A stretch of DNA of 44,399 bases from a virus: the IMG/VR virus record IMGVR_UViG_3300039366_000017. The stretch is one strand, 5' to 3'. Of the stretch, positions 1-44,399 are shown piece after piece (position 1 is the stretch's first letter; every line of letters begins with the position of its first letter). The position numbers and the translations under genes are program-made. Below the pieces are notes generated by a model, which saw only the letters and a list, made by a program, of their open reading frames with translations, did not search any database and had not been told where the DNA came from.

Positions 1-77
1 CACAGCCTGTATAGCTAGAGCGAGACCCGTAGTTACCGTAGGCTCTCTTAAGCATGTTAGCCCACAGGTCATAAATT
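1..77. repeat. Assembly overlap: exact copy of 44323..44399 (circularly closed contig, unit length 44322 bp)
   Basis: First 77 nt read identically to the last 77 nt. A minus-strand ORF and an intron continue seamlessly across the junction. Confidence 0.9.
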
Positions 78-346
78 TTACGGATGATGCTGTTAGAACC
101 TCTTGCAGGGATTCTAATAGGAGACCCAAGGAACCCTACACCATAGACTGTAGGTTCCATAAAGTCTTCAAACTTGCCTGCCTTAATGTTGCCGGTCTGA
201 ACATCAATGACTGTACCAGTCTTGACAAACTGAATGACAGCCCTAGCATGCTTAATTTTACCGTTAGGAAGCTTATGCTTCTTAGTTCTAGACAGGATCT
301 TAATAAGACCCTTAGGAGTTTCGTAAGTTTTGTTAATTTCGTACAT
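1..346 (-). CDS. Intron-encoded homing-endonuclease-like protein, N-terminal part (191 aa in total; continues 44322..44093)
   Basis: ATG at 346 (MYEINKTYETPKG...) reads through position 1 into 44322 and stops at 44093. The C-terminal HLDKDIKKGYCKIYSRDHCKFVSAAEN resembles an HNH (beta-beta-alpha-Me) motif. The ORF lies entirely inside the intron, downstream of the ribozyme core. Confidence 0.6.
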   Translation of the reverse strand, partial: MYEINKTYETPKGLIKILSRTKKHKLPNGKIKHARAVIQFVKTGTVIDVQTGNIKAGKFEDFMEPTVYGVGFLGSPIRIPARGSNSIIRKIYDLWANMLKRAYGNYGSRSSYTGC

Positions 347-554
347 AGTTATGTTCCTTATTAGTTGACGATGCTTCATATCTCTATGAAGACCAGACTA
401 TATCTTATACCAAAAGGTATCCCCATTTTTCGAGCTACTTAGCCCTACATAATAGTCGTTACACCTGCAATACGCTCGGCTCGGTATTGTCTTTCCTAGT
501 TAGGACTGAGTTCCACCGAATTTAAGGGGTTTAAAGACGACATGGTTAAAGTTT

Positions 555-2307: not shown

Positions 2308-3240
2308 TTACATTGATACTCTGTCTTTAATTTCAGCTAACTTAGCATCGTTCATACGAGTACTGCCATTAGCTTTGGTGTACCCCAAGTATCCGCAAAC
2401 ACGACTAATGACAGACAAGTTAGTAGATCCACAATGGGGACACTTATTCATGACATTAGTTGAATGCTCACCGCAGTCTTCACAATAGACACTATCAAAG
2501 TTAATACCCTGATAGAACCCTTTCTCCATACCTCGTAAGATCAGTGCCTTAAGTGCCTGAAGGTTCTCAGGGTTAGTCACACGGACATACTGAATGTGGC
2601 CTCCGTTGCACATATGGAACATCTTGTATTCAGCATCCTGTTTCTCAAAAGGGGTGATAGGTTCATTAACGTGCATATGGAAGCTGTTAGTGAAGTATTC
2701 TCCAAACTGATGGTCACCTGTGTAATCAGCATATTGTTTAGCTTGAACCCCACAAAGGTTCTCTGCAGGGGTACCATAGACAGCATAAAGGTATCCATCT
2801 TCTTTCTTGAACTGCTCTACCTTATCATTGATATGCTTAAGTACACCCTCAGCAAACCAAGGATCCTGATAGAGTGTCTTACCAGTAGCAAGGATATTAA
2901 GTTCATTGAGGGCAGTAACACCAAAGGATGCAGTCATGTAGTTGACCAAATCACCAATCTCATCGTCTGCCTTAAGGTTCCCCTTATAGAACCCTCCTTG
3001 CATGAATGCCATAGGATTGGTACAAGCTTTAGTGTGTCTGATGATATCATAGCGTTTCTTAAAGAAATTACGGATAGTCTCAAGTCGTACATCAAGGACA
3101 TTGAAGAAGTCTACGTTATTCTTTAGAGAGTAGGCCAAAATAAGAGGGAGATTAAGAGACACTGCCCCAATGTTGCATCGACCGTTAGTGATCCATTCAC
3201 CATTCTCGGGATCCTTCCACGGACTGAGGTAAGCTCTACA
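2308..3240 (-). CDS. nrdD: Anaerobic ribonucleoside-triphosphate reductase, exon 3
   Basis: Starts CRAYLSPW (completing PMG-CR). Contains the Zn ribbon CEDCG..CPHCGS and the glycyl-radical motif RVCGYLG. Confidence 0.85.
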   Translation of the reverse strand, partial: CRAYLSPWKDPENGEWITNGRCNIGAVSLNLPLILAYSLKNNVDFFNVLDVRLETIRNFFKKRYDIIRHTKACTNPMAFMQGGFYKGNLKADDEIGDLVNYMTASFGVTALNELNILATGKTLYQDPWFAEGVLKHINDKVEQFKKEDGYLYAVYGTPAENLCGVQAKQYADYTGDHQFGEYFTNSFHMHVNEPITPFEKQDAEYKMFHMCNGGHIQYVRVTNPENLQALKALILRGMEKGFYQGINFDSVYCEDCGEHSTNVMNKCPHCGSTNLSVISRVCGYLGYTKANGSTRMNDAKLAEIKDRVSM

Positions 3241-4032
3241 CATTATATTCATATAGGTTCGTTACTCCTATACCGTTTATTAAACTGCTCATAGTCACCT
3301 ATGAGATTAGACTATATCTTCTGAGGACTGAGCCTCAGTTCCGCTTTTCGATTCACTTGAATCTACACCCTTACATTCATCAGGGTTAGTCGTTGGGCAT
3401 TCACATCGAACAACACGAATCCCAAGCTCAGGCAGCTTTCCACTATAGAAGCGTAAGACTGTTTTAATACGCTCTACAGGAAGCCCTAAACTATGGGCAC
3501 ATTCAGTCATAGAATCAAAGTACACCTTAGGCTCTGTGGTAATATATACTGGCTGTTTCTTGAACTTAGTAGAAGGGTCTCTAACAGTTTCCCGATAGCC
3601 CTTCTTAATGTTCTCACTTTGGGTAACCCATCGCAGATTAGTGTACATGTTATTAGTCTTATCCCCATCGATATGGTCTACAACCAACCCTTCTTGCTTA
3701 CCTTTTACAAAAAGTGTAGCAACAATCTGATGAGTATACAAAGACTTACGCCGAATCTTACCATTAGCACTACTAAAGAGATCACAACGGGCATAGCCAT
3801 TGTTATTCATAGTCTGAGCTTTGATTCGATTATAGCGTTTAGAGAAGATTCTCCCCATGTTAGAGACACAATAAAGGTTCTCCCATTCAGGGACATCTTT
3901 CCAAATTTCTTGATTATTAGTGTTGTTCATATTATATACGTAGTTATACGTTCAATAAAAGTGTTTAGCAACGGATTTGCTTAATATAAGCTCTCCCCGT
4001 TTTAACGGAATTTTATATGGGCAGTATTACGC
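3241..4032 (-). mobile_element. Group I intron 2 of nrdD (792 nt) carrying an HNH endonuclease ORF
   Basis: Exon AUGGGU pairs with guide GCCCAU (U-G at the junction, exon ends at 4033). R-like GGTGTAGA and S-like AGATATAGTC lie at the 3' end. The intron ends ..ATAATG with G at 3241. Confidence 0.8.
3307..3930 (-). CDS. HNH homing endonuclease (NUMOD4-like N-terminus plus HNH_3-like core)
   Basis: WKDVPEWENLYCVSNMGRIFS and VVDHIDGDKTNNMYTNLRWVTQSEN. The last codons run into the intron S element. Confidence 0.85.
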   Translation of the reverse strand: MNNTNNQEIWKDVPEWENLYCVSNMGRIFSKRYNRIKAQTMNNNGYARCDLFSSANGKIRRKSLYTHQIVATLFVKGKQEGLVVDHIDGDKTNNMYTNLRWVTQSENIKKGYRETVRDPSTKFKKQPVYITTEPKVYFDSMTECAHSLGLPVERIKTVLRFYSGKLPELGIRVVRCECPTTNPDECKGVDSSESKSGTEAQSSEDIV

Positions 4033-4578
4033 ACCCATAGGAGTAACTACTTGCTTATTCTCCATGTACTGTTTGCCTACAGAACTGTGTGCCCAATCCC
4101 CAGTTAAACTGAGGAAATCAGGGTACATGCACTTACTGGAGCATTCAATAGCTAACTCAAAGACATCCGAAGCTTCAATAGACCCCCCTACGCAGTCTTC
4201 ATCATACAAGTAGACTAGCTTAGGGAACACTACAGGCTTATGGTTCTCCCCGTGGCCATTCATGCGGGTCTTAAGGATAGCCTCACAAACTGCCTTAAGA
4301 AAGAGCTTGTCTTTATTGGTTAACTCTGGGTCATTCCAACAGCCGAAGGACACTGTAGTAAACGCAAAGTCACCTCGTGAACAGGGGACGGTATTAAGTT
4401 TCAACTCAAGAGACTGAAAGCCTTGCTTAAGTTCATCCTGAAGAGTACGCCAAGCGTACACATGGAGCTGCACTTCAGTTGCCCCGGGGAAACTATTGCT
4501 CGCCTGCTTGTATGCCTTATTCCAAGTCTTATGACAGTATGGCAGAAGAACCATATCAATTTGGGAGATTGTAAAACC
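4033..4578 (-). CDS. nrdD: Anaerobic ribonucleoside-triphosphate reductase, exon 2
   Basis: In-frame extension upstream of the listed ORF gives GFTISQIDMVLLPY. It ends ...VVTPMG immediately before the catalytic Cys codon. Confidence 0.8.
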
Positions 4579-5350
4579 CAGCGGAATCTCCCTAAACCGC
4601 TCTGTGGACTATCTCTTAAGCATTACTGCTTGTGTGCGCTTCGACCGGTAACCACTTCCGGCCTACTCTACTCACCTTTCGGATTTCGATAGTCTCTACA
4701 CCTTCTGCAAGAGTCTTAGCGATAATCTCAGGGTGACTGTAGTAGTAATTCACAGTAATTCCCGCTGCTTTGCAGGCATCCTTGATACTACCATATGTGA
4801 TCCCCTGATACATGCATTTCTTAGCTACTCCCGGCTTCTTACCTTTCATTCCATCAGAGTTTTCAGACCAAGACAACCACCTAAGGTTCTCGACCCTGTT
4901 GTCCTGTCGGTTCCTGTTCATGTGATCTACACAATAACTAGGATCAGGCTTAGGACCAAGAAAGGTCTCTGCTACAACCTGATGAACCTTCTTGTAGATT
5001 CGCTTCTTGTTGATAGAGAAAAGGATTTCAAAGTAGCCATCTTTGTCTACCTTATACGAAAGCTTCTTAGGAGCTCTTGTATAGTCAATCCTCTTATCAG
5101 GAGTAGATTTAGCGGCCGGTTTCCTGAACGAGACTACCTCTCCATCTTTAGAGACAAAGTAGCCTTCATAGGGAGTAGAAAAATATTTATCGATTTGCAT
5201 GTATGAATACCTCTTGTAGCTTGGCACGGGATTCCTTTCGGTTCCCCGTTAGCTGAAATCATATTAACAATATGGGGGCGTATCCCCTAAATTTCAACAC
5301 CGCAAGTCATGCGTTCACACACTTTTAATTCGGCAGTTTCTATTGATCGC
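4579..5350 (-). mobile_element. Group I intron 1 of nrdD (772 nt) carrying an HNH endonuclease ORF
   Basis: Exon UUCGGU (ends at 5351) pairs with guide GCCGAA. R-like GGTGTAGAGACTAT and S-like TAAGAGATAGTCC are present. The terminal G is at 4579. Confidence 0.8.
4616..5227 (-). CDS. HNH homing endonuclease
   Basis: YCVDHMNRNRQDNRVENLRWLSWSEN motif. The C-terminal ~30 codons overlap the R/P8/S region of the intron core. Confidence 0.85.
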   Translation of the reverse strand: MPSYKRYSYMQIDKYFSTPYEGYFVSKDGEVVSFRKPAAKSTPDKRIDYTRAPKKLSYKVDKDGYFEILFSINKKRIYKKVHQVVAETFLGPKPDPSYCVDHMNRNRQDNRVENLRWLSWSENSDGMKGKKPGVAKKCMYQGITYGSIKDACKAAGITVNYYYSHPEIIAKTLAEGVETIEIRKVSRVGRKWLPVEAHTSSNA

Positions 5351-5995
5351 ACCGAACTGTTGAGCTGTAGCAACTAAGGTGATATCTCCAATTACCTGAA
5401 GTGCACTCAATACACTCGTAGGTTCCGTGTAGTCCACATTGGACATACTAAAGCCACCCCTAAGGACATTCCCAATATCAAACAGGCAGCAATTGACAGA
5501 ACCCATGAGCATATCTCGCATATCGTGAATGTAGATATCGCCACGCTTAGTTAACTCTTTTTCTTCCTTGCTAAGATAGAATTGTCGATAGAGCTCTTTT
5601 GTAAGGTATCCCTTAATGAGCGAGCCTTTTGTTGACACCAGAGAGCTATCGAAGTTAGCATTCTCTCTGTCCCCAAGTAGAAGCACGTTATCAGCTTCAT
5701 CTTTAACTTTCTCAAATGATTTAGCATAAGTATTCTTATAGTCTCTATATTCTTGATATGAATTCGCTACATCAGTCAACCCAAAGTACTTCAAGTAATG
5801 AATTACTTCCTTATGAAGGTCTTTAGTTGGGGCATCTCTATCAATAATTAAACAAGAGTGAACTTTCTCAACCAGTTTGTTAAGAACATCAGGCTCCACA
5901 TATTGATTCACTCTAGCAGCCGCCTTATAGACAGCTTCTTTGATCTTCTCTCCGTTCCAGCCTTCTACAGTACCGTCTTTCTTAATAATCTTCAT
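5351..5995 (-). CDS. nrdD: Anaerobic ribonucleoside-triphosphate reductase, exon 1 (ATP-cone and N-terminal part)
   Basis: MKIIKKDGTVEGWNGEKIKEAV is an ATP-cone-like start. It ends ..TAQQFG, and joined to exon 2 gives QQFG-GFT. Confidence 0.8.
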
Positions 5996-24619: not shown

Positions 24620-25368
24620 CTTTAATATTATCGGGGAGGCGTTACTTCCCCACTTATAGTTACCTATAAGAATAGACTATATCTTACCTAAAGGTTTCTA
24701 CATTTCGAGCCACTTGGCTCTACTCCTTTCGGATAGTCGTTACACTCACTTAACCTTCTTAGCACCTGTAACCCTAGCCCAAGATTTACCCTTCCAAATA
24801 TTTTGGATAGTCCCACGAGAAACGTCTATTTTGTGGCGATTCTTAAACTGTGTAGGCGTCAATCCACTATCTCGGAATTTGTAAATAAAGAGTACTTCTT
24901 CCGTAGTTAGCTTATGCGTCCCAATAAGTTCCCCATGTTGTTCCATGTGTAAACCGTTGCCCCAACAGTGTCGAATATTCTGTTTAGCAGTACACCACTC
25001 TAGGTTGCCCACAGAGTTGTTATAACGGTTCCCATCCTTGTGATTAACTTGAGGGTAATTATTAGGATTTGGAATAAATGCTTGAGCAACAAGACGATGC
25101 AAAGGGATAAACTTAGAGCAATGATCTGCACCTAAATGTACCTTCACATATCTGTTTGTCTTGGTTATAGATGTACCTTTAATCCATTTGCCATTATCCT
25201 CATTAAAGATTGTTCCATCTTCAAATAAGGTATAATTATGGACACATGGAAAAGGCAATAATTCATTAAGGTTGGTTTTTCTCATAGTTAAAAACCTCGT
25301 TAGCTCGGTATTGTCCCAGAGGGATGTTCACCGAATTAGTAGAATTTATAGAGAGCCACTTTTATTTA
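24620..25368 (-). mobile_element. Group I intron in the portal gene (749 nt) carrying an HNH endonuclease ORF
   Basis: Exon AGAGGGU (ends at 25369) pairs with guide GCUCUCU (25356..25350), with U-G at the junction. P AATTCGGTGAAC, Q ATACCGAGCT, R GTGTAACGACTAT and S TAAGATATAGTC are present. The terminal G is at 24620. Confidence 0.8.
24746..25285 (-). CDS. HNH homing endonuclease (179 aa), inserted between the Q and R elements of the portal intron
   Basis: HRLVAQAFIPNPNNYPQVNHKDGNRYNNSVGNLEWCTAKQN motif. Confidence 0.85.
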   Translation of the reverse strand: MRKTNLNELLPFPCVHNYTLFEDGTIFNEDNGKWIKGTSITKTNRYVKVHLGADHCSKFIPLHRLVAQAFIPNPNNYPQVNHKDGNRYNNSVGNLEWCTAKQNIRHCWGNGLHMEQHGELIGTHKLTTEEVLFIYKFRDSGLTPTQFKNRHKIDVSRGTIQNIWKGKSWARVTGAKKVK

Positions 25369-31072: not shown

Positions 31073-32698
31073 CTAGAATGGGCAGTCACCTAAGCCATCC
31101 TCAAATGGGCAATCGTAGTCCTTTAGTCGGCCTGTTTCGGGATCATAATAGAGATAACCACCTATACCAGTCAAACCACTGAAACGATTCTTAAGTACTC
31201 TAATGGCCATGACATTAGGATTATCTCCCTGTTGATTCCTCTCCAGGCCAATCACCATATCTGCAAGCTGAGCGATAGCACCGGAACCCCTAAGTTGACT
31301 TAAAGACACCTGAGCTCCTTCTTCGTGACCTTTCTTATCGGGGCGCTTAAGGTGACTAACAACATACATAGTACACCCTGTTTCTTCAACAAGGGATCTA
31401 AGGTTTGTCATTAGTTTGTCAATAGCTTTACGCTCCCCGCCATCGTCACTATTGTCCATACCAGAGACAACAATAGAGATATGGTCTAGGAAGATTCTCT
31501 TGCATCCTAAAGCTACGATCATGTATCTAAGCTTACTAAGCAGATTCCCAGAATCAAGTGATCCAAAGTGATCATAGAGGAAGAACTTTCCGTTGCCAAT
31601 CGTGACATCAAAAGCACTCTTGAGTTCTTCTTTAGAAACACTATCGGGATCCACGCTGATAATGAGACGTCTATTAAGAAATATGGACATAAGTTCAAGT
31701 CCCGTCTTTGCCGTAGATTCCTCAAGAGCAACCACGCCACAAGTCTCGCCTTTAGAGACACCAAAGAAATATTCAAGCTCTCTGAGTAAAGTGGATTTTC
31801 CCATACCTGATCCTGAGGTAATGACATAAAGCTCACCGTGTCTAGCACCGTTTGTCTTGCTTTGGAGAGCTTGAAAAGGATAGGCCACACTGTCTTTAAG
31901 ACTATCAAGACCTTCCACACACTTCTCATAGAGATCTTGACCTGAAACAATTCCATCAGGTCTGTAAGGCTTAGCGTTCCATATGGCCGATACAAGGTCA
32001 CCTGATCTCCCAGCCTTAAGACACTCATTAGGATCCTTAAGAGGTAGATTAGCAATGTACGCTTTACCCACTGGGAGAATCTTTGCACAATCTTCACATG
32101 CTTTACGTCCCGGATCATCCATATCAAACATTAGGATGATCTCTTCAAAGTTATTTAGATACTCTAGGTTAGCTTCAATGGCTTTCCTAGCAGCCTGAGC
32201 ACCATTAGGGATAGACACTACAGGCCACTTATTGCCTTGCATTTGAGACACACTAAGGGCATCTATCTCACCCTCAGTGATTACTAGTTTCTTACCACTA
32301 GACCACAACTGAGAACCATAGAGGCACCCAGAGATCTTCCCTAGTACAGCAAAAGACTTATCAGGGAATCTAAGCTTTTGTCCTACAAGAGAACCCTTGT
32401 CATCATAGTAGCAAGCCACTTGACAAGGGTTACCCTTATACTCCCCCACGAAATACTTTAGCTTAGTACAAGTATCTTTAGTGATACCCCTAGCAGGCAA
32501 AGCAGAGATCTGTAGTTCCTCTAAAGGAATCATATTGGATGCTGACATCTTTACCCCCTTGGGTTTGTCCAAAGATCCATCAGGTCTAAAATAAGTGGTA
32601 CAGCTATAGCAATACTTATGACCGTCACTAAAAACAGCAAGAGCATCACTAGAGCCGCAATTAGGACAAGGCTCATGGTGCAGAAAGGTCGATTCCAT
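31073..32698 (-). CDS. Primase-helicase (T7 gp4-like, 541 aa)
   Basis: Zn ribbon CPNCGSSD..CYSC, TOPRIM EGEIDALS / FDMDDPG, Walker A GSGMGKST, Walker B IFLDHIS. Confidence 0.95.
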   Translation of the reverse strand: MESTFLHHEPCPNCGSSDALAVFSDGHKYCYSCTTYFRPDGSLDKPKGVKMSASNMIPLEELQISALPARGITKDTCTKLKYFVGEYKGNPCQVACYYDDKGSLVGQKLRFPDKSFAVLGKISGCLYGSQLWSSGKKLVITEGEIDALSVSQMQGNKWPVVSIPNGAQAARKAIEANLEYLNNFEEIILMFDMDDPGRKACEDCAKILPVGKAYIANLPLKDPNECLKAGRSGDLVSAIWNAKPYRPDGIVSGQDLYEKCVEGLDSLKDSVAYPFQALQSKTNGARHGELYVITSGSGMGKSTLLRELEYFFGVSKGETCGVVALEESTAKTGLELMSIFLNRRLIISVDPDSVSKEELKSAFDVTIGNGKFFLYDHFGSLDSGNLLSKLRYMIVALGCKRIFLDHISIVVSGMDNSDDGGERKAIDKLMTNLRSLVEETGCTMYVVSHLKRPDKKGHEEGAQVSLSQLRGSGAIAQLADMVIGLERNQQGDNPNVMAIRVLKNRFSGLTGIGGYLYYDPETGRLKDYDCPFEDGLGDCPF

Positions 32699-34310
32699 GA
32701 TCTAGCATATAACGTGCACTTTGGAAATCACGAAGGTTATATTGAAAGCCTGTATCAAAGCTGTATCGGCACTGATGTTCAAAAGGTGTCATATGCCCAC
32801 TATCAATAAGCCGCTTAGCAAGAGTAAGGTCCTTTAGGATATCCGGCTTAGACCCATCGTGATTAAGGTAAGACACTCGGGCACAACGTGCAGCAGAGAT
32901 AAGTGTGAGAATCCGCAGATCATCGATAGCATCCATCTCATCAAAGTTCACATACGGAAGCGTACGCCCCCCGTGAGCATTGATATAAATGTAGGTGTTG
33001 CTAACGGCATTCATAGCCATCTTAATAGCCTTAGCAAGGTGCTGGATCTCTGGATCAGCATCAGGAGACAACCGGAGATCAAAGAAATTGCTCCACTCAG
33101 TAGCAGTGACAATAACTTTAATCTTAGTGAAGGGCTCAAGGATGCGATTGATGTGCTGCTTATGAAACCCATTGTCAATCATCTTATGAGCAACCTCGAT
33201 TGCCTTAAATGCAGCATCTTGCCACTCTTCACAAAAGATATCATAGTCCTCTTCATTGACAATATCTTTGCCTTGCATGCCCTTGCAATTCTTATAGACA
33301 TCCGAAGGCACCCAAGGATCATTCAAGATATTCTGAATAGTTCGCTCTACAGGTACCGCACGCGAGCTAGAGGCATTACGACTGAAACAGTTATGCACTG
33401 TAATCCCGTTTGCTAGGAAGTTATGGTATTCAGATGAAACCGAAATATCAAATACCTCTTCTTCACCAACATACTCAATGGAATCTACCTCTACTGCCAT
33501 AACATTACATTGGCTAACACCTTGCCAACCCTGCTTACTATGCCTGAGCTTATGACAATCCTGACAAAGTGCAACCACATTATTAATGTCAAAAGCAAGA
33601 TCAGGGTTTTCATACCTCGGAATCACGTGATGAATTTCTAAAGGCTTGTTCTCAGCACCACAATCAGCACATCGAAACCCCTGCCTTTCAGACACTTCAG
33701 GCTTAACCTTTTTATTCCAACAAGAAACCCATTCTCCATTAATCTTCTTGTAAGGATCAAAACGAAGTTCTGTATACTTCTTACGAGTATTGCAGTACAC
33801 CTTATCTCTACCTACAGCAATGTCCTGCAACTCCTTCCAACCACTATCAGTAAGAATTAGATGGTCTGCAGTGCAAGTTACGGAGAAATCTCCTGCTGTA
33901 ATCTTATACACAGGCTTAACCCCAACCTTCCAACAATCAGTAATGGTCGTGTGAGTAACTTCCATCGTAGACTCATCCACAGAACGAAGACGCATCTTGT
34001 TCAAACGACCTTTCATGTCATATCGCCGTACTCCGCCCCATCGAGTAGCATGAGGGGAACTACCGTTTTCCCACTTATCCCAAAAATCTCCCAGTGTAAT
34101 TTGATAGGATCTGTGTTTGCTACCCCTGCTTCCACTAGGGAGATCGAAAGTCAGCACTGTATCTGCAGTGAGGCACCTGTGTGTCATGAATTCACTATGG
34201 ATGAAACGAGGATACTCCAATTCAAACGTATAGAGGTTATCCCAGCGTGCACGAATGATAGCTTTAGAGTTACCTACGCAATAGACCTTAGAGATAGGAT
34301 CATCACTCAT
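32673..34310 (-). CDS. thyX: ThyX-like FAD-dependent thymidylate synthase precursor containing an in-frame intein
   Basis: FMTHR-[intein]-CFSRNASSSRAVP reconstitutes a ThyX RHRxxSxxxxSxR-type motif. Also has ..INRILEPF..TATEWSNFFDLR..EIQHLA. The start is set at MSDDPISK (GAGGAGG upstream); the listed M-rich extension is discounted. Confidence 0.75.
   Translation of the reverse strand: MSDDPISKVYCVGNSKAIIRARWDNLYTFELEYPRFIHSEFMTHRCLTADTVLTFDLPSGSRGSKHRSYQITLGDFWDKWENGSSPHATRWGGVRRYDMKGRLNKMRLRSVDESTMEVTHTTITDCWKVGVKPVYKITAGDFSVTCTADHLILTDSGWKELQDIAVGRDKVYCNTRKKYTELRFDPYKKINGEWVSCWNKKVKPEVSERQGFRCADCGAENKPLEIHHVIPRYENPDLAFDINNVVALCQDCHKLRHSKQGWQGVSQCNVMAVEVDSIEYVGEEEVFDISVSSEYHNFLANGITVHNCFSRNASSSRAVPVERTIQNILNDPWVPSDVYKNCKGMQGKDIVNEEDYDIFCEEWQDAAFKAIEVAHKMIDNGFHKQHINRILEPFTKIKVIVTATEWSNFFDLRLSPDADPEIQHLAKAIKMAMNAVSNTYIYINAHGGRTLPYVNFDEMDAIDDLRILTLISAARCARVSYLNHDGSKPDILKDLTLAKRLIDSGHMTPFEHQCRYSFDTGFQYNLRDFQSARYMLDHGIDLSAP
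33390..34175 (-). mobile_element. HNH-type intein (262 aa) within ThyX
   Basis: Starts CLTADTVL (block A) and has TADH (block B TxxH). Central CADCG...HHVIPRYENPDLAFDINNVVALCQDCHKLRH is an HNH motif. Ends VFDISV..NGITVHN followed by the +1 Cys. Confidence 0.8.
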
Positions 34311-34473
34311 CTTCATCATCCTCCTCATCAATCTCATCATCAGCATCATCTTCAGAATCTAGGAAGGCTTCATATTCATACTCCCACTTCTCTTTCTGAT
34401 TGTTGTGAAGCTCATCACGATATGAATCTCCATCAGGATAATGCCAATCTGATTTACGTTCAATAGGTTCCAT
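34303..34473 (-). CDS. Small highly acidic protein (56 aa; below the ORF-track cutoff)
   Basis: Hand translation gives MEPIERKSDWHYPDGDSYRDELHNNQKEKWEYEYEAFLDSEDDADDEIDEEDDEDE. The stop overlaps the thyX start. Confidence 0.45.
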   Translation of the reverse strand: MEPIERKSDWHYPDGDSYRDELHNNQKEKWEYEYEAFLDSEDDADDEIDEEDDEDE

Positions 34474-34510: not shown

Positions 34511-34595
34511 TGGTAGGCCGAGGGGGATTCGAACCCCCATGCTCTAAGCGGCGCATTTTAAGTGCGCTGAGTCTCACCAATTTCTCCATCAGCCC
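34511..34595 (-). tRNA. tRNA-Leu (anticodon UAA), class II, CCA encoded
   Basis: The reverse complement folds as GGGCTGA-TG-GAG/AAATTGGTGAGA/CTC-A-GCGCA/CTTAAAA/TGCGC-variable arm-GGGGG/TTCGAAT/CCCCC-TCGGCCT-A-CCA. The acceptor stem has 2 G-U pairs. Confidence 0.8.
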
Positions 34596-34691: not shown

Positions 34692-35123
34692 TTAGTTAAT
34701 TCTTTTTAGAGTATTCAGTTTGATAAAAGCCTCTAGTCTCGTGTTGAGGTCTCTGAGTAATTCAACACCTTCTCTATGAAGTCCTGCACTCTCTGAGAGT
34801 AACTGTCTACACGCTTCGACTGACTTTGCATTAGCTCCTGAGGCATCCCTGAGAAGCTTTCTATCGGTGCTACTGAGGTTGTACTGCACCCGATCAACAT
34901 GTTTAGTAAGGGCAACCAAGTCAGCAGCATCAGAAGCTTTACTTTTAATGATAAGGCTAATTGTTTCATCTTTCCTAGCTGTTAGCTCCTTTAGTTTGAC
35001 TTCATTCTGAGCTTGAATAGCTACAAGCTCTTCAGTGTGCTTATTGCTTTCATATTTCCTGCCACCAATGACACCTGTAATGAAAGCTAAGACTACTGCT
35101 AGTATGGCTACCTTCTCCCACAT
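34692..35123 (-). CDS. i-spanin (Rz-like) candidate (143 aa)
   Basis: N-terminal TMD (VAILAVVLAFITGVIGG) followed by coiled-coil-like sequence. It contains an embedded lipoprotein ORF. Confidence 0.65.
   Translation of the reverse strand: MWEKVAILAVVLAFITGVIGGRKYESNKHTEELVAIQAQNEVKLKELTARKDETISLIIKSKASDAADLVALTKHVDRVQYNLSSTDRKLLRDASGANAKSVEACRQLLSESAGLHREGVELLRDLNTRLEAFIKLNTLKRIN
34733..34969 (-). CDS. o-spanin (Rz1-like) candidate embedded out of frame in the i-spanin gene
   Basis: Signal peptide ending in the lipobox-like LIGC (..LLTWLPLLNMLIGCSTT). Lies entirely within 34692..35123 in another frame. Confidence 0.55.
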   Translation of the reverse strand: MKQLALSLKVKLLMLLTWLPLLNMLIGCSTTSVAPIESFSGMPQELMQSQSKRVDSYSQRVQDFIEKVLNYSETSTRD

Positions 35124-35133
35124 AGTTTATTCT

Positions 35134-35157
35134 TCTCTCTAGTAGTGGAGATTTTAT
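35134..35157 (-). promoter_or_regulatory. Phage RNAP promoter (sense ATAAAATCTCCACTACTAGAGAGA)
   Basis: One of 4 near-identical 24-mers, all in the minus-sense orientation in intergenic or gene-end positions. Confidence 0.7.
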
Positions 35158-35750
35158 GCGATACGAACTAAGTCACCTTTAGTGAACTCAAGTGTCCCAT
35201 TGGCTTCCTTAAGATCAGCTTGAGACAACTTGCATCTATCAAGAGAACTTGCATCTTCATAGATAACGTAGACAGCACCACGGCCGTACCACGACTGAAC
35301 ATCAAAGCAAGGGCAGTCTTTAGCTACCCCGGGGAAATCTCTATGCCCTAAGACCTTAGCTTTAGGATACTTACTCTTAAGCCAGTCTAAAAGTTTCTTA
35401 AGAGATTCCTTTTGCTTCTCTGTAAAGTTGTCTACAGACTTACCGTTACGATCAGTCCCCCCAATAAGGCAAATGCCAACACTGTCATCATTATAACCCA
35501 GAACGTGACTGCCAATAGCTTCAAGGGGTCTGCCATTTTGAATAGTTCCATCCGTAAGAATGACAAAGTGATAGCCTATACCAAGCCATCCCCTTTGACG
35601 ATGCATTTGATCAATAGTTTTCCAAGTGTACTCAGGCTTATTTTGAGTAGCGCTGCAGTGAACCACAAGATAATCCGTAGAACTGCGAGACTTGAACTTA
35701 ACAAAGTTTCTATGGTAGTCAATCAGTGGTTCCTTAAAGGTAGTAGTCAT
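35154..35750 (-). CDS. N-acetylmuramoyl-L-alanine amidase (T7 gp3.5 lysozyme-like)
   Basis: LVVHCSAT, GWLGIGYHFVILTDGT, GSHVLGYNDDSVGICLIGG and HRDF..AKDCPCFDV parallel T7 lysozyme. Confidence 0.9.
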   Translation of the reverse strand: MTTTFKEPLIDYHRNFVKFKSRSSTDYLVVHCSATQNKPEYTWKTIDQMHRQRGWLGIGYHFVILTDGTIQNGRPLEAIGSHVLGYNDDSVGICLIGGTDRNGKSVDNFTEKQKESLKKLLDWLKSKYPKAKVLGHRDFPGVAKDCPCFDVQSWYGRGAVYVIYEDASSLDRCKLSQADLKEANGTLEFTKGDLVRIA

Positions 35751-41185: not shown

Positions 41186-41485
41186 TTAGAGGTCGTTCCA
41201 ATCTCCCAGCCACTTCCCCTCGAAGTTCTCAATGCCTTGCATGAGTGCATAATGCTTAACTTCTCGGATGACTAGAAGAGTACGTTCTTCATCTCTGAAG
41301 TCTGAGTAGTGCATTGCATTCCACAGAAGATAAGCTTCAAACTCATGAAAATGATCATCATCAGTCGTAAACCGGATCACATACTGAGCACCATCAGGGC
41401 ACACTATAGAAACCCTCTGTGTCTCTGCATCCGATCTGATAATCACTCTCTTTAATCTGAACTGTAGCATCTTTAGATCCTCCAT
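41186..41485 (-). CDS. First early protein (99 aa, mildly acidic; T7 gp0.3 position)
   Basis: First ORF downstream of the sigma70-type promoter. No recognisable motif. Confidence 0.6.
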   Translation of the reverse strand: MEDLKMLQFRLKRVIIRSDAETQRVSIVCPDGAQYVIRFTTDDDHFHEFEAYLLWNAMHYSDFRDEERTLLVIREVKHYALMQGIENFEGKWLGDWNDL

Positions 41486-41514
41486 GTGATCTGTTTGTGT
41501 TTAACCATGAGCAC

Positions 41515-42988: not shown

Positions 42989-43301
42989 CATTATGTTTAC
43001 ATAAGTTCGTTACGCTTATGCCTTGGGGCTATACATTACTGTATAGATCGGACTATATCTTAACAATAGCTAATCTTCCAACCTCTTCTACCACGAATAC
43101 CTTTATAGAGGAGGTTTCTTATATTACCTCTAGCAAATCCTAGAGTATCTGCACATTATTCTTATAGCTATTGTTCCCACTTTTTCAGATCACTTGATCT
43201 TACAATTAGTCTCTACACCTTCCTATTTCTAGGCTTGGCTCGGTATCGTCCCTTAGGGAGTTTCACCGAATTTAATGGGTTTTATTTCGGCAATGTTGTT
43301 T
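42989..43301 (-). mobile_element. ORF-less group I intron 2 of the terminase large-subunit gene (313 nt)
   Basis: Exon UUCGGU (ends at 43302) pairs with guide GCCGAA. Contains P TTAAATTCGGTGAAAC, the TCCC-TAA-GGGA hairpin, Q GATACCGAGCC, the CCTA-GAAA-TAGG hairpin, R GGTGTAGAGACTAA and S TTAAGATATAGTCC. It ends ..ATAATG with G at 42989. Confidence 0.85.
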
Positions 43302-44090: not shown

Positions 44091-44322
44091 CTTTATGTTA
44101 AGGTAAGGTCGTTAGTCTTACCCCATCGTCTTTTCACAGAATCTGCCACATTTTCAGCGGCAGAGACAAACTTACAATGATCCCTAGAATAAATCTTGCA
44201 GTAACCCTTCTTAATGTCCTTATCAAGGTGCATGCTAGAATCCTTCTCCCACTCTTCATATCCTTCTACCTCATGGATAGTATTCAAGAAAGTGGTGAAG
44301 TTATGCCATCTAGGATCTACTA
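44091..44322 (-). mobile_element. Terminase intron 1, 3' part (continues from 1..554 across the circular junction)
   Basis: The intron ends AG with the terminal G at 44091, 2 nt after the endonuclease stop codon (44093..44095). Confidence 0.75.
44093..44322 (-). CDS. Intron-encoded homing-endonuclease-like protein, C-terminal part (continuation of 346..1)
   Basis: Same frame across the junction. The listed ORF 44093..44377 is the truncated view of this gene. Confidence 0.6.
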
Positions 44323-44399
44323 CACAGCCTGTATAGCTAGAGCGAGACCCGTAGTTACCGTAGGCTCTCTTAAGCATGTTAGCCCACAGGTCATAAATT
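44323..44399. repeat. Assembly overlap: exact copy of 1..77
   Basis: Identical 77-mer at both window ends. Confidence 0.9.

Follow-up and report, generated by a model that had tools for sequence, protein, structure and literature searches.

Five separate group I introns in the nrdD, terminase and portal genes of a T7-like gut phage

The IMG/VR virus record IMGVR_UViG_3300039366_000017, a stretch of 44,399 nucleotides referred to here as the window, is the circularly assembled genome of a T7-like gut phage with five separate group I introns, two located in nrdD, two in the terminase gene and one in the portal gene. Every gene in the window lies on the minus strand and the gene set identified with Pfam is of the T7 type, comprising a single-subunit RNA polymerase, a primase-helicase, a family A DNA polymerase, a head-tail connector (the portal protein), a Gp10A-like capsid protein and a T7-type terminase, together with NrdD/NrdG and ThyX. 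The two ends of the window are identical over 77 nt (1-77 = 44323-44399), which indicates a circular assembly of ~44,322 bp. The assembly junction lies within the open reading frame (ORF) of terminase intron 1, and this intron and its ORF therefore run off one end of the window and resume at the other. The closest GenBank record, MT835557.1, is an unannotated phage scaffold of human faecal origin that is ~90% identical and lacks all five introns at the window sites. Together the introns account for 7.7% of the genome, which also contains one ThyX intein.

Intron boundaries were fixed by comparison with intron-less homologues, chiefly MT835557 (at the protein level for nrdD), and a preliminary description of the DNA, which had placed the nrdD introns at 3241-5350, proved to have their limits exactly right (Table 1). 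Joining the exons in silico gives an NrdD of 707 amino acids (aa), a terminase of 593 aa and a portal protein of 528 aa, all without internal stops; the spliced nrdD coding sequence is 2124 nt long and the nrdD region measures 1,886 nt in MT835557 versus 3,673 nt in the window. In all five introns the exonic U that precedes the 5' splice site is paired with G in P1 and the terminal nucleotide is a G. The P1 helices, formed with the internal guide sequence (IGS), are 6-7 bp long and include this U-G pair (AGACGAU/GUCGUCU, UUCGGU/GCCGAA twice, GAGGGU/GCUCUC and UAUGGGU/GCCCAUA). At the gathering threshold of the Rfam group I model RF00028 (50 bits), one of the five introns is detected, namely terminase intron 2, whilst terminase intron 1, nrdD intron 2 and the portal intron emerge in permissive scans. 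No Rfam match was obtained for nrdD intron 1, permissive scans and shortened natural variants included. Low scores coincide with cores that are interrupted by an ORF, and ORF-less relatives of two of the lineages score 63.8 bits (L037, 251 nt, nrdD intron 2 lineage) and 48.0 bits (L047, 238 nt, terminase intron 1 lineage).

Minimum free energy (MFE) folding was performed on ORF-excised sequences in which the P7 strands were masked because of the P3/P7 pseudoknot. The folds of both nrdD introns recover P3, P4-P5, P6, P8 and P9; that of nrdD intron 1 also contains P1, P7.1 and P7.2, with P6 closing the ORF loop, and that of nrdD intron 2 recovers the core except for P1, its 5' exon pairing with the 3' tail instead, so that the P1 assigned to this intron comes solely from manual complementarity. 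The GACUA/UAGUC P7 is invariant across family members, and across 17 members of the family, the window introns among them, RNAalifold shows P7.2, P8, P9 and the terminal hairpin to have undergone compensatory changes. A distinctive feature of nrdD intron 1 is a structured insertion of ~62 nt between P3 and P4, composed of one hairpin and a three-way-junction domain that an 8-bp stem closes off; at this position the rest of the aligned family has just UAA(A). Weak Rfam matches to snoRNA, hammerhead, PK-IAV and similar models lie far below threshold and are regarded as chance. The five elements are group I introns, which we infer to be self-splicing.

Table 1. Positions of the introns, their ORFs, ORF-ribozyme overlaps and the nrdD exons in the window (slash, insertion site in the protein)
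Feature	Position	Strand	Length	Basis and details
nrdD exons	exon 1 5351-5995; exon 2 4033-4578; exon 3 2308-3240	-		Pfam NRDD, ATP-cone, Gly_radical
nrdD intron 1	5350->4579	-	772 nt	junction against intron-less NrdD of MT835557 and L025; after QQFG (QQFG/GFT); 5' exon TTCGGT, IGS GCCGAA at 5329-5334
nrdD intron 1, predicted HNH endonuclease ORF	4616-5200 (ATG 5200)	-	194 aa	Pfam HNH_3 2e-14, 53.4 bits; phrog_59
nrdD intron 1, ORF/ribozyme overlap	4616-4713	-	98 nt	P6' 4708-4713; J6/7-P7 4690-4701; P7.1; GUA-P7.2 4639-4666; P3' 4632-4638; P8 4618-4631; stop TAA 4616-4618 in J8/7
nrdD intron 1, structured insertion between P3 (5316-5322) and P4	5252-5313	-	~62 nt	MFE fold
nrdD intron 2	4032->3241	-	792 nt	junction against MT835557; partial Rfam matches 25.8 + 12.1 bits; after TPMG (TPMG/CRAY); 5' exon ATGGGT, IGS GCCCATA at 4016-4022
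nrdD intron 2, NUMOD4 + HNH_3 ORF	3307-3930	-	207 aa	NUMOD4 4e-12 (46.5 bits); HNH_3 9e-13 (48.1 bits)
nrdD intron 2, ORF/ribozyme overlap	3307-3412	-	106 nt	P6' 3404-3412; J6/7-P7 CAACGACTA 3387-3395; P7.1 3367-3386; GUA-P7.2 3345-3366; P3' 3339-3344; P8 3321-3338; J8/7-P7' + stop 3307-3320
Portal intron	25368->24620	-	749 nt	junction against MT835557; Rfam 25.0 bits; splits Val codon of AERV/TAEEIR; IGS GCTCTC at 25351-25356
Portal intron, HNH_3 ORF in L6	24746-25285	-	179 aa	Pfam HNH_3 1.3e-8, 34.8 bits
Terminase intron 1	554->1 + 44322->44091	-	786 nt	intron-less homologue; Rfam 47.5 bits at 374-585
Terminase intron 1, 5' part	1-554	-		core 373-554; ORF ATG at 346
Terminase intron 1, 3' part	44091-44322	-		ORF stop 44093-44095; P9.1' 44124-44130; terminal hairpin 44102-44122; omega-G 44091
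Terminase intron 2	43301->42989	-	313 nt	Rfam 80.7 bits; absent from MT835557; 5' exon TTCGGT, IGS GCCGAA at 43286-43291
Terminase intron 2, remnant 3' end of GIY-YIG-like ORF in L8/P8'	43064-43155	-	~90 nt	alignment to L079, L114

The resemblance between the five introns is genuine and, as the preliminary description had recognized, certain strings recur far more often than chance would allow. Each intron contains the string AAGAKATAGTC once, which makes five occurrences versus 0.10 expected; the P4...P4' string AATTCGGTGRA...ATACCGAGC occurs three times (terminase introns 1 and 2 and the portal intron) versus 0 expected; and GTGTARMGACTA occurs four times versus 0.02 expected. The last of these had been described as an R-region string common to all five introns, which holds for four of them; alignment to the Rfam model shows that the true J6/7-P7 of nrdD intron 2 is CAACGACTA and that the match GGTGTAGA, previously taken for it, lies in the P7.1/P7.2 junction. 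Similarly, the 'AAGTG..CGAAA' segment assigned to P8 is in fact the P7.2 loop and its 3' flank. All five introns possess a GUA linker followed by P7.2. The portal intron and both nrdD introns also have a P7.1 hairpin, in place of which the terminase introns hold 3-4 unpaired nt, like the introns of phages K1E and PA28. The joining of P7.1 and P7.2 by G-U-A is a hallmark of subgroup IA2 (PMC3428280).

A BLAST search with the ribozyme cores against ~50,000 phage records found relatives in many unrelated phages, 15 of which were fetched for comparison. Features that might be supposed specific to the window introns, namely the TTCGGTG/TACCGAG P4, the GUA-P7.2-GAAA module and a 3' hairpin whose loop reads (G/C)UAACGA and which is followed by a UAAACAUAAUG-like tail, recur in the introns of phages of Klebsiella, Edwardsiella, Escherichia (K1E), Vibrio and Pseudomonas (PA28, KIL1) as well as in those of Staphylococcus, Streptococcus, Pectobacterium, Erwinia and Salmonella phages. 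Most family members are inserted after GGT, which pairs with a GCC guide sequence (IGS (T)GCC). The window introns are related in the broad sense, but the additional, lineage-specific similarity proposed for them did not hold up, as the strings they share are found in introns of many unrelated phages and are essentially those of the subgroup.

Summed blastn bits between mini-introns were too noisy to resolve relationships within this family, and an identity matrix calculated from the 203 well-occupied columns in an alignment of 20 sequences, along with a bootstrapped neighbour-joining tree, was used instead. Pairwise core identity between the five window introns ranges from 49 to 66% with a mean of 0.551, compared with means of 0.577 between window and outgroup introns and 0.582 between outgroup introns. 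The best partner of each of the five is a foreign intron, four of them group with foreign introns and clades restricted to the window appear in at most 3.7% of bootstraps. The groupings that are supported unite terminase intron 1 with the introns of Klebsiella phage vB_Kp_Z1 and an Edwardsiella phage (90%), terminase intron 2 with those of PA28, K1E and VEN (80%) and nrdD intron 2 with that of Salmonella phage D1-2 (77%). On these comparisons the five window introns are not each other's closest relatives. Moreover, three of them have orthologues at the same site in other phages. The counterparts of terminase intron 1 in Klebsiella vB_Kp_Z1 and Edwardsiella DT115P1 follow the same exon sequence (GCAGACGAT), with the same IGS and ORF position; the portal intron has an orthologue within the Val codon of AERV/TAEEIR in Pectobacterium phage Gaspode; and nrdD intron 2 has orthologues in the FelixO1-like phages D1-2 and SP116 (...PMG/CRA(Y/F)LSP). 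Between the terminase intron 1 ORF and those of its two orthologues identity is 43-45%, and between the portal ORF and the Gaspode HNH protein it is 45% over 165 aa; both ORFs are taken to have been co-inherited with their introns.

The distribution of introns among closer relatives was established by scanning IMG/VR with NrdD, terminase and portal, which returned 28, 80 and 33 related loci, respectively, onto which the spliced proteins were mapped. At least 11 polymorphic insertion sites were found (nrdD ~aa 168, 216, 397, 556 and 681; terminase aa 160, 180, 368, 422 and 513; portal aa 373), each of which is occupied in some contigs and empty in others, and nrdD is uninterrupted in L025. Intron-plus and intron-minus alleles, for which the preliminary description had suggested a search, thus exist at every site, the numbers of loci with and without the intron being 8 and 18 for nrdD intron 1, 18 and 9 for nrdD intron 2, 25 and 55 for terminase intron 1, 16 and 63 for terminase intron 2, and 15 and 17 for the portal intron. 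Copies at the two nrdD sites of the window are 99.1-99.9% identical, compared with 72-99% identity of the flanking exons at the protein level, and for nrdD intron 1 eight relatives carry copies that are 99.2-99.9% identical or deletion derivatives. When the 119 extracted inserts were clustered at ≥85% identity over ≥150 nt, 21 clusters resulted, each restricted to a single site; the best match across sites links the terminase aa-422 and aa-368 introns (85-86% over 81 nt of the 5' core). Such a pattern is what would be expected as the footprint of site-specific homing, and not of transposition within the genome.

Two further observations concern the nrdD sites of the clade. At or within a few nt of aa 397, at least four unrelated intron types are found, and many ORF-deleted size variants occur in the clade (L019-L158). 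The aa-556 intron (L032) has a relative at the same site in nrdD of the Enterococcus myophage EF1, to which it is 88% identical over the 67-nt 3' end. Kinship between nrdD intron 1 and this aa-556/EF1-type intron was also considered and rejected: none was detected at E ≤ 0.01 and the match to EF1 is a 43-nt conserved block.

The ORFs that reside in the introns differ in both position and family, as the preliminary description had noted for position, and lie in L6 (portal, nrdD intron 1 and nrdD intron 2), in L9.1 (terminase intron 1) or, as a remnant, in L8 (terminase intron 2). The three ORFs in L6 exceed the Pfam HNH_3 cut-off of 24.8 bits and match phrog_59 of the PHROGs collection, but have in common only the HNH_3 motif of 45-70 aa; in the portal intron the TGA stop of the ORF adjoins the start of J6/7. 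The ORF of terminase intron 1, by contrast, has no Pfam match and matches none of these three, yet matches phrog_2081 'HNH endonuclease' (2e-40). It had been thought to follow the core. It does indeed start after P9, but it is located in the loop of P9.1, since the ORF-less same-site intron L047 pairs CATCGTC with GACGATG as this hairpin, and the frame continues across P9.1' and the terminal hairpin, its stop lying 2 nt short of the 3' splice site. Terminase intron 2, described as lacking an ORF, contains no intact one today but was not ORF-less from the outset. It is 95% identical to same-site introns of 716-719 nt on either side of a ~403-nt deletion, and retains the last ~90 nt of their ORF, which lies in L8, reads through P8' and stops at a TAA in J8/7. 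The full-length version of this ORF scores 21.5 bits against GIY-YIG (cut-off 22.6) and 24.8 bits against I-HmuI_NUMOD-like (cut-off 27), below both cut-offs. Terminase intron 2 is accordingly an ORF-deleted derivative, its long 'P8 extension' being the remnant of that GIY-YIG-like gene. Taken together, the ORFs fall into no fewer than three endonuclease families, housed in L6, L8 and L9.1, and this diversity, along with the ORF-less and deletion variants, bears out the independent gain and loss of endonucleases envisaged in the preliminary description.

A diverged intron at the terminase intron 1 site of MT835557 was initially entertained and rejected, as the site is empty in the sequence and a different intron lies 15 codons downstream. 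This element (~34988-35745, after ...LFELV) is a group I-like intron with its own HNH-containing ORF, which is flanked by a 12-bp P6; it has no Rfam match at E ≤ 0.01.

In both nrdD introns the ORF reads through P6', J6/7, P7, P7.1, P7.2, P3' and both strands of P8, and at ~33-35 codons the overlap with the ribozyme core agrees with the 30 or more codons originally estimated. The ORF of nrdD intron 2 extends further, via J8/7 and P7', to a stop (GTC-TAA) directly after P7'. The HNH ORF of the unrelated aa-556 intron (L032) likewise traverses all of the 3' core; its last codons, ...GAT ATA GTC TAA, share both frame and stop with those of nrdD intron 2. The conserved (U)UAAGAUAUAGUC(UAA) of J8/7-P7'-J7/9 can offer a stop in each frame. 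At its other end, the ORF of nrdD intron 1 starts 10 nt past the 5' strand of P6, and this strand (CAAGAG) overlaps the Shine-Dalgarno sequence of the ORF (AAGAGG at 5211-5216, minus strand), so that ribozyme folding should occlude translation initiation. No recognizable Shine-Dalgarno sequence was found for the ORF of nrdD intron 2.

These observations are very probably explained by separate acquisition of the five introns from other phages, each via ordinary site-specific homing, as opposed to copying within the genome. Every intron has a cognate site to itself, in each case within a conserved gene, and its arrival and upkeep would most likely depend on conventional homing, in which a related phage infecting the same cell has its intron-less allele cleaved by the intron-encoded endonuclease and receives a copy of the intron during repair. 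The mutual resemblance of the introns would then reflect membership of an old and widespread phage intron family. Endonuclease genes, for their part, are probably independent invaders of the peripheral loops: I-HmuI-like HNH genes would have entered L6 of the portal and nrdD introns, a different HNH family L9.1 of terminase intron 1, and a GIY-YIG-like gene L8 of terminase intron 2, from which it was presumably lost later via the ~400-nt deletion. An ORF that starts in such a loop would read 3'-ward into the ribozyme to the first in-frame stop, often one supplied by the J8/7-P7'-J7/9 sequence. A single transcript could either be translated into the endonuclease or fold as a ribozyme, but not both, and the overlap of P6 and Shine-Dalgarno sequence in nrdD intron 1 resembles the arrangement in T4 td/I-TevI.

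The preliminary description had instead proposed that one intron lineage spread within the genome to five sites, which could have occurred by reverse splicing or ectopic homing, followed by gain and loss of ORFs. Core and peripheral motifs common to all five introns invite such a reading, as does the identical P1 of nrdD intron 1 and terminase intron 2 (exon TTCGGT, IGS GCCGAA), a possible hint of shared history. This last point counts against separate acquisition, as do two others: terminase intron 2 and nrdD intron 1 have no same-site orthologue outside this gut-phage clade, and the outgroup introns were chosen as BLAST matches to the window introns, which favours the discovery of closer foreign relatives, although the comparison was judged the relevant test nonetheless. 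The P1 identity, however, amounts to just 3 nt beyond the GGT/GCC typical of the family, and it was rejected as a weak signature of reverse splicing because GGT/(T)GCC is usual in the family and, P1 apart, the two introns have only universal blocks in common. When this is added to core identities that are on average lower within the window than to foreign introns, to window-only clades below 4% of bootstraps, to same-site orthologues with co-inherited ORFs in distant phages and to the absence of any cross-site cluster in the 119 clade inserts, intragenomic spread of a single lineage becomes highly improbable. A deep-time version of the idea fares much better and is, on balance, probably correct. 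It holds that the phage IA2-type family owes its diversity to transposition events that took place now and then in the gene pool of phages, through reverse splicing or through retargeting of endonucleases to ...GGU-ending sites, and that the present genome sampled five of the resulting site-specific lineages. The architecture common to sites and hosts, which includes the peripheral GUAACGA hairpin, the preference for insertion after GGT with a GCC guide and the similarity of the terminase aa-422 and aa-368 introns, the closest cross-site pair, are all in keeping with it. No recent event of this kind is visible, and neither direction nor mechanism can be inferred from sequence; the scenario is nevertheless compatible with separate acquisition by homing and does not constitute an alternative to it.

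As to the nature of the overlapped codons, we conclude that the sequence is probably ribozyme first and constrained primarily as RNA. This is because the ORF-less L037 is 96% identical over intron positions 632-788, which correspond to the ORF-overlapped stretch of nrdD intron 2; because the natural deletion variants L044 and L045 of nrdD intron 1 have lost 200 and 380 nt of the ORF and kept both core halves >99% identical; because the phrog_59 match of the nrdD intron 2 ORF covers residues 3-158 of 207, ending ~14 residues ahead of the overlap; and because the HNH ORF of the SP116 same-site orthologue ends before the core. If, on the other hand, the 30-35 codons were truly dual-function, the C-terminal peptide would be needed for endonuclease activity and would be under selection at the protein level. 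Recurrence of the overlap in both nrdD introns, the ancestor of terminase intron 2 and the aa-556 intron would fit such a requirement, and the phrog_59 match of the nrdD intron 1 ORF, whose envelope reaches residue 183 of 194 and thus lies inside the overlap, speaks against a constraint on RNA alone and makes a protein-level role for part of the tail possible. Yet the RNA is retained after decay of the ORF, and a frame of 35 codons would stay open by chance with the appreciable probability of roughly 0.1-0.2, as estimated from the stop-codon frequency of AT-rich sequence, and a dual function is therefore considered unlikely. Less likely still is decay of any of the inserts (nrdD intron 1 above all) to a state that no longer splices, which would make the host gene a pseudogene. 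For nrdD intron 1, the 62-nt insertion that sits atypically between P3 and P4 could be read in this way, and so could the failure to match Rfam even in shortened natural variants; more generally, four of the five introns score below the gathering threshold in the window, which weighs against their assignment, and the status of these four rests on their junctions, on manual and MFE structures and on family covariation. In the case of nrdD intron 1, however, the exact in-frame junctions, the 6-bp P1 with its U-G pair, the terminal G and the presence of all core helices, including the invariant P7, are difficult to reconcile with decay, as is the 99% conservation of copies in eight relatives whose nrdD is otherwise intact.

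Overlap between an intron ORF and the ribozyme core is already documented in phage introns. The ORF of I-TevI in T4 extends into the ribozyme core and its premature translation lowers td splicing (PMC2988022); the ORF of the Pf-WMP3 IA2 intron contributes to P6a, P6, P7, P7.1 and P7.2 (PMC3428280); and conserved elements overlap nuclease genes in a survey of the Bastillevirinae (PMC11878797). The IA2 introns of PMC3428280 are similar to those of the window in their T7-like hosts, the lack of P2, the G-U-A-joined P7.1 and P7.2 and the presence in the P6 region of an HNH ORF that reads into P6, P7, P7.1 and P7.2; the core of the portal intron is also ~86% identical, over 56% of its length, to the DNA polymerase intron that Erwinia phage phiEa100 carries. 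They differ in host gene (nrdD, terminase and portal in the window) and in number, with five per genome here and not one, whilst the overlap is longer here, passing through P3' and P8 in both nrdD introns and through J8/7-P7' in nrdD intron 2. The T4 pairs td/I-TevI and nrdD (sunY)/I-TevII are comparable in that they are phage IA2-type introns in nucleotide-metabolism genes, with a loop ORF whose 3' end contributes core nucleotides, a ribosome-binding site sequestered by RNA structure, presence or absence among relatives and mobility by homing (PMC2988022). Their endonucleases, however, are of the GIY-YIG type, whereas those predicted in the window are mostly I-HmuI-like HNH enzymes.

Comparable systems are also provided by the split terminase genes of cultured Autographiviridae (K1E gp40A/40.5/40B, Vibrio VEN, Klebsiella vB_Kp_Z1 and Edwardsiella DT115P1). 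The vB_Kp_Z1/DT115P1 intron, which occupies exactly the site of terminase intron 1, shares not only its IGS and ORF position but also its terminal hairpin. The introns of K1E, VEN and PA28 are the closest relatives of terminase intron 2 (70-72% core identity); those of K1E and VEN lie at a DPxG site ~55 codons upstream, which is empty in the window and occupied (aa 368) in five relatives. The nrdD intron of the FelixO1-like phages D1-2 and SP116 has a colinear 3' half that is 73-74% identical to that of nrdD intron 2, including the unusual P7.1, and exists in ORF-less and HNH-containing forms, as does the nrdD intron 2 lineage. The HNH ORF of SP116 differs in stopping just before J6/7, with no overlap, and the two ORFs are merely 29% identical. 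Several IA-type introns per genome, ribozymes split by endonuclease-bearing loops and trees in which taxa are intermixed are likewise features of the Staphylococcus Twort-like phages and the Bastillevirinae (PMC11878797). These are myoviruses with genomes of >120 kb, however, whereas in the window five introns and an intein make up ~9-10% of a podovirus-type genome of 44 kb.

The intein lies in the ThyX (Thy1) gene (32673-34349, minus strand) and contains an HNH endonuclease domain, the insert spanning ~33376-34178 (Pfam Intein_splicing, HNH); ~786 nt of it are absent from MT835557, and it represents the sixth mobile element of the genome. A tRNA gene is present at 34514-34595 (minus strand), with a long variable arm, an Rfam score of 51 bits and the anticodon loop CUUAAAA, and MT835557 has two tRNA matches in the corresponding region. 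Downstream of the terminase gene, MT835557 contains ~1.5 kb with three extra ORFs (L002, 4683-6257), versus ~315 nt in the window (41187-41501). The same scaffold is without 217 nt in the 3' region of nrdD (window 2575-2791), a frameshifting length, and without ~80 nt at the nrdD/nrdG junction (window ~2248-2327), from which it follows that its intron-free nrdD may be truncated or the scaffold misassembled.

The intron load, the richness in polymorphic sites, the extent of read-through in nrdD intron 2 and the P3/P4 insertion of nrdD intron 1 are somewhat unusual, but none is very surprising. A more ambitious reading, which we offer tentatively and regard as rather doubtful, is that the clade is an unusually dense arena of intron and endonuclease turnover, that J8/7-P7'-J7/9 serves as a universal stop codon trap and that two features are new. 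Were this so, unrelated introns would be competing for the same few nucleotides, ribozymes would outlast serial gain, decay and replacement of their endonucleases, and any ORF landing in L6 or L8 could become expressible. The candidate new features would be the read-through of the entire 3' catalytic half, with both strands of P7 in nrdD intron 2, as a switch between translation and splicing, and the structured 62-nt domain between P3 and P4 of nrdD intron 1.

For annotation, the consequence is that the pieces of the essential genes nrdD (three), terminase (three) and portal (two) are to be joined and that four 'hypothetical' ORFs become predicted homing endonucleases. No new mechanism comes to light. 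The genome instead provides a data-rich example of how mobile introns may populate a small phage genome, through independent site-specific acquisition, through the swap or loss of endonucleases while the ribozyme persists and through ORFs that borrow their 3' ends and stops from the ribozyme. With 11 sites and with ORF-plus, ORF-deleted and empty alleles, the polymorphism of this clade would be a good natural system in which to follow the life cycles of introns and endonucleases in the human gut virome.

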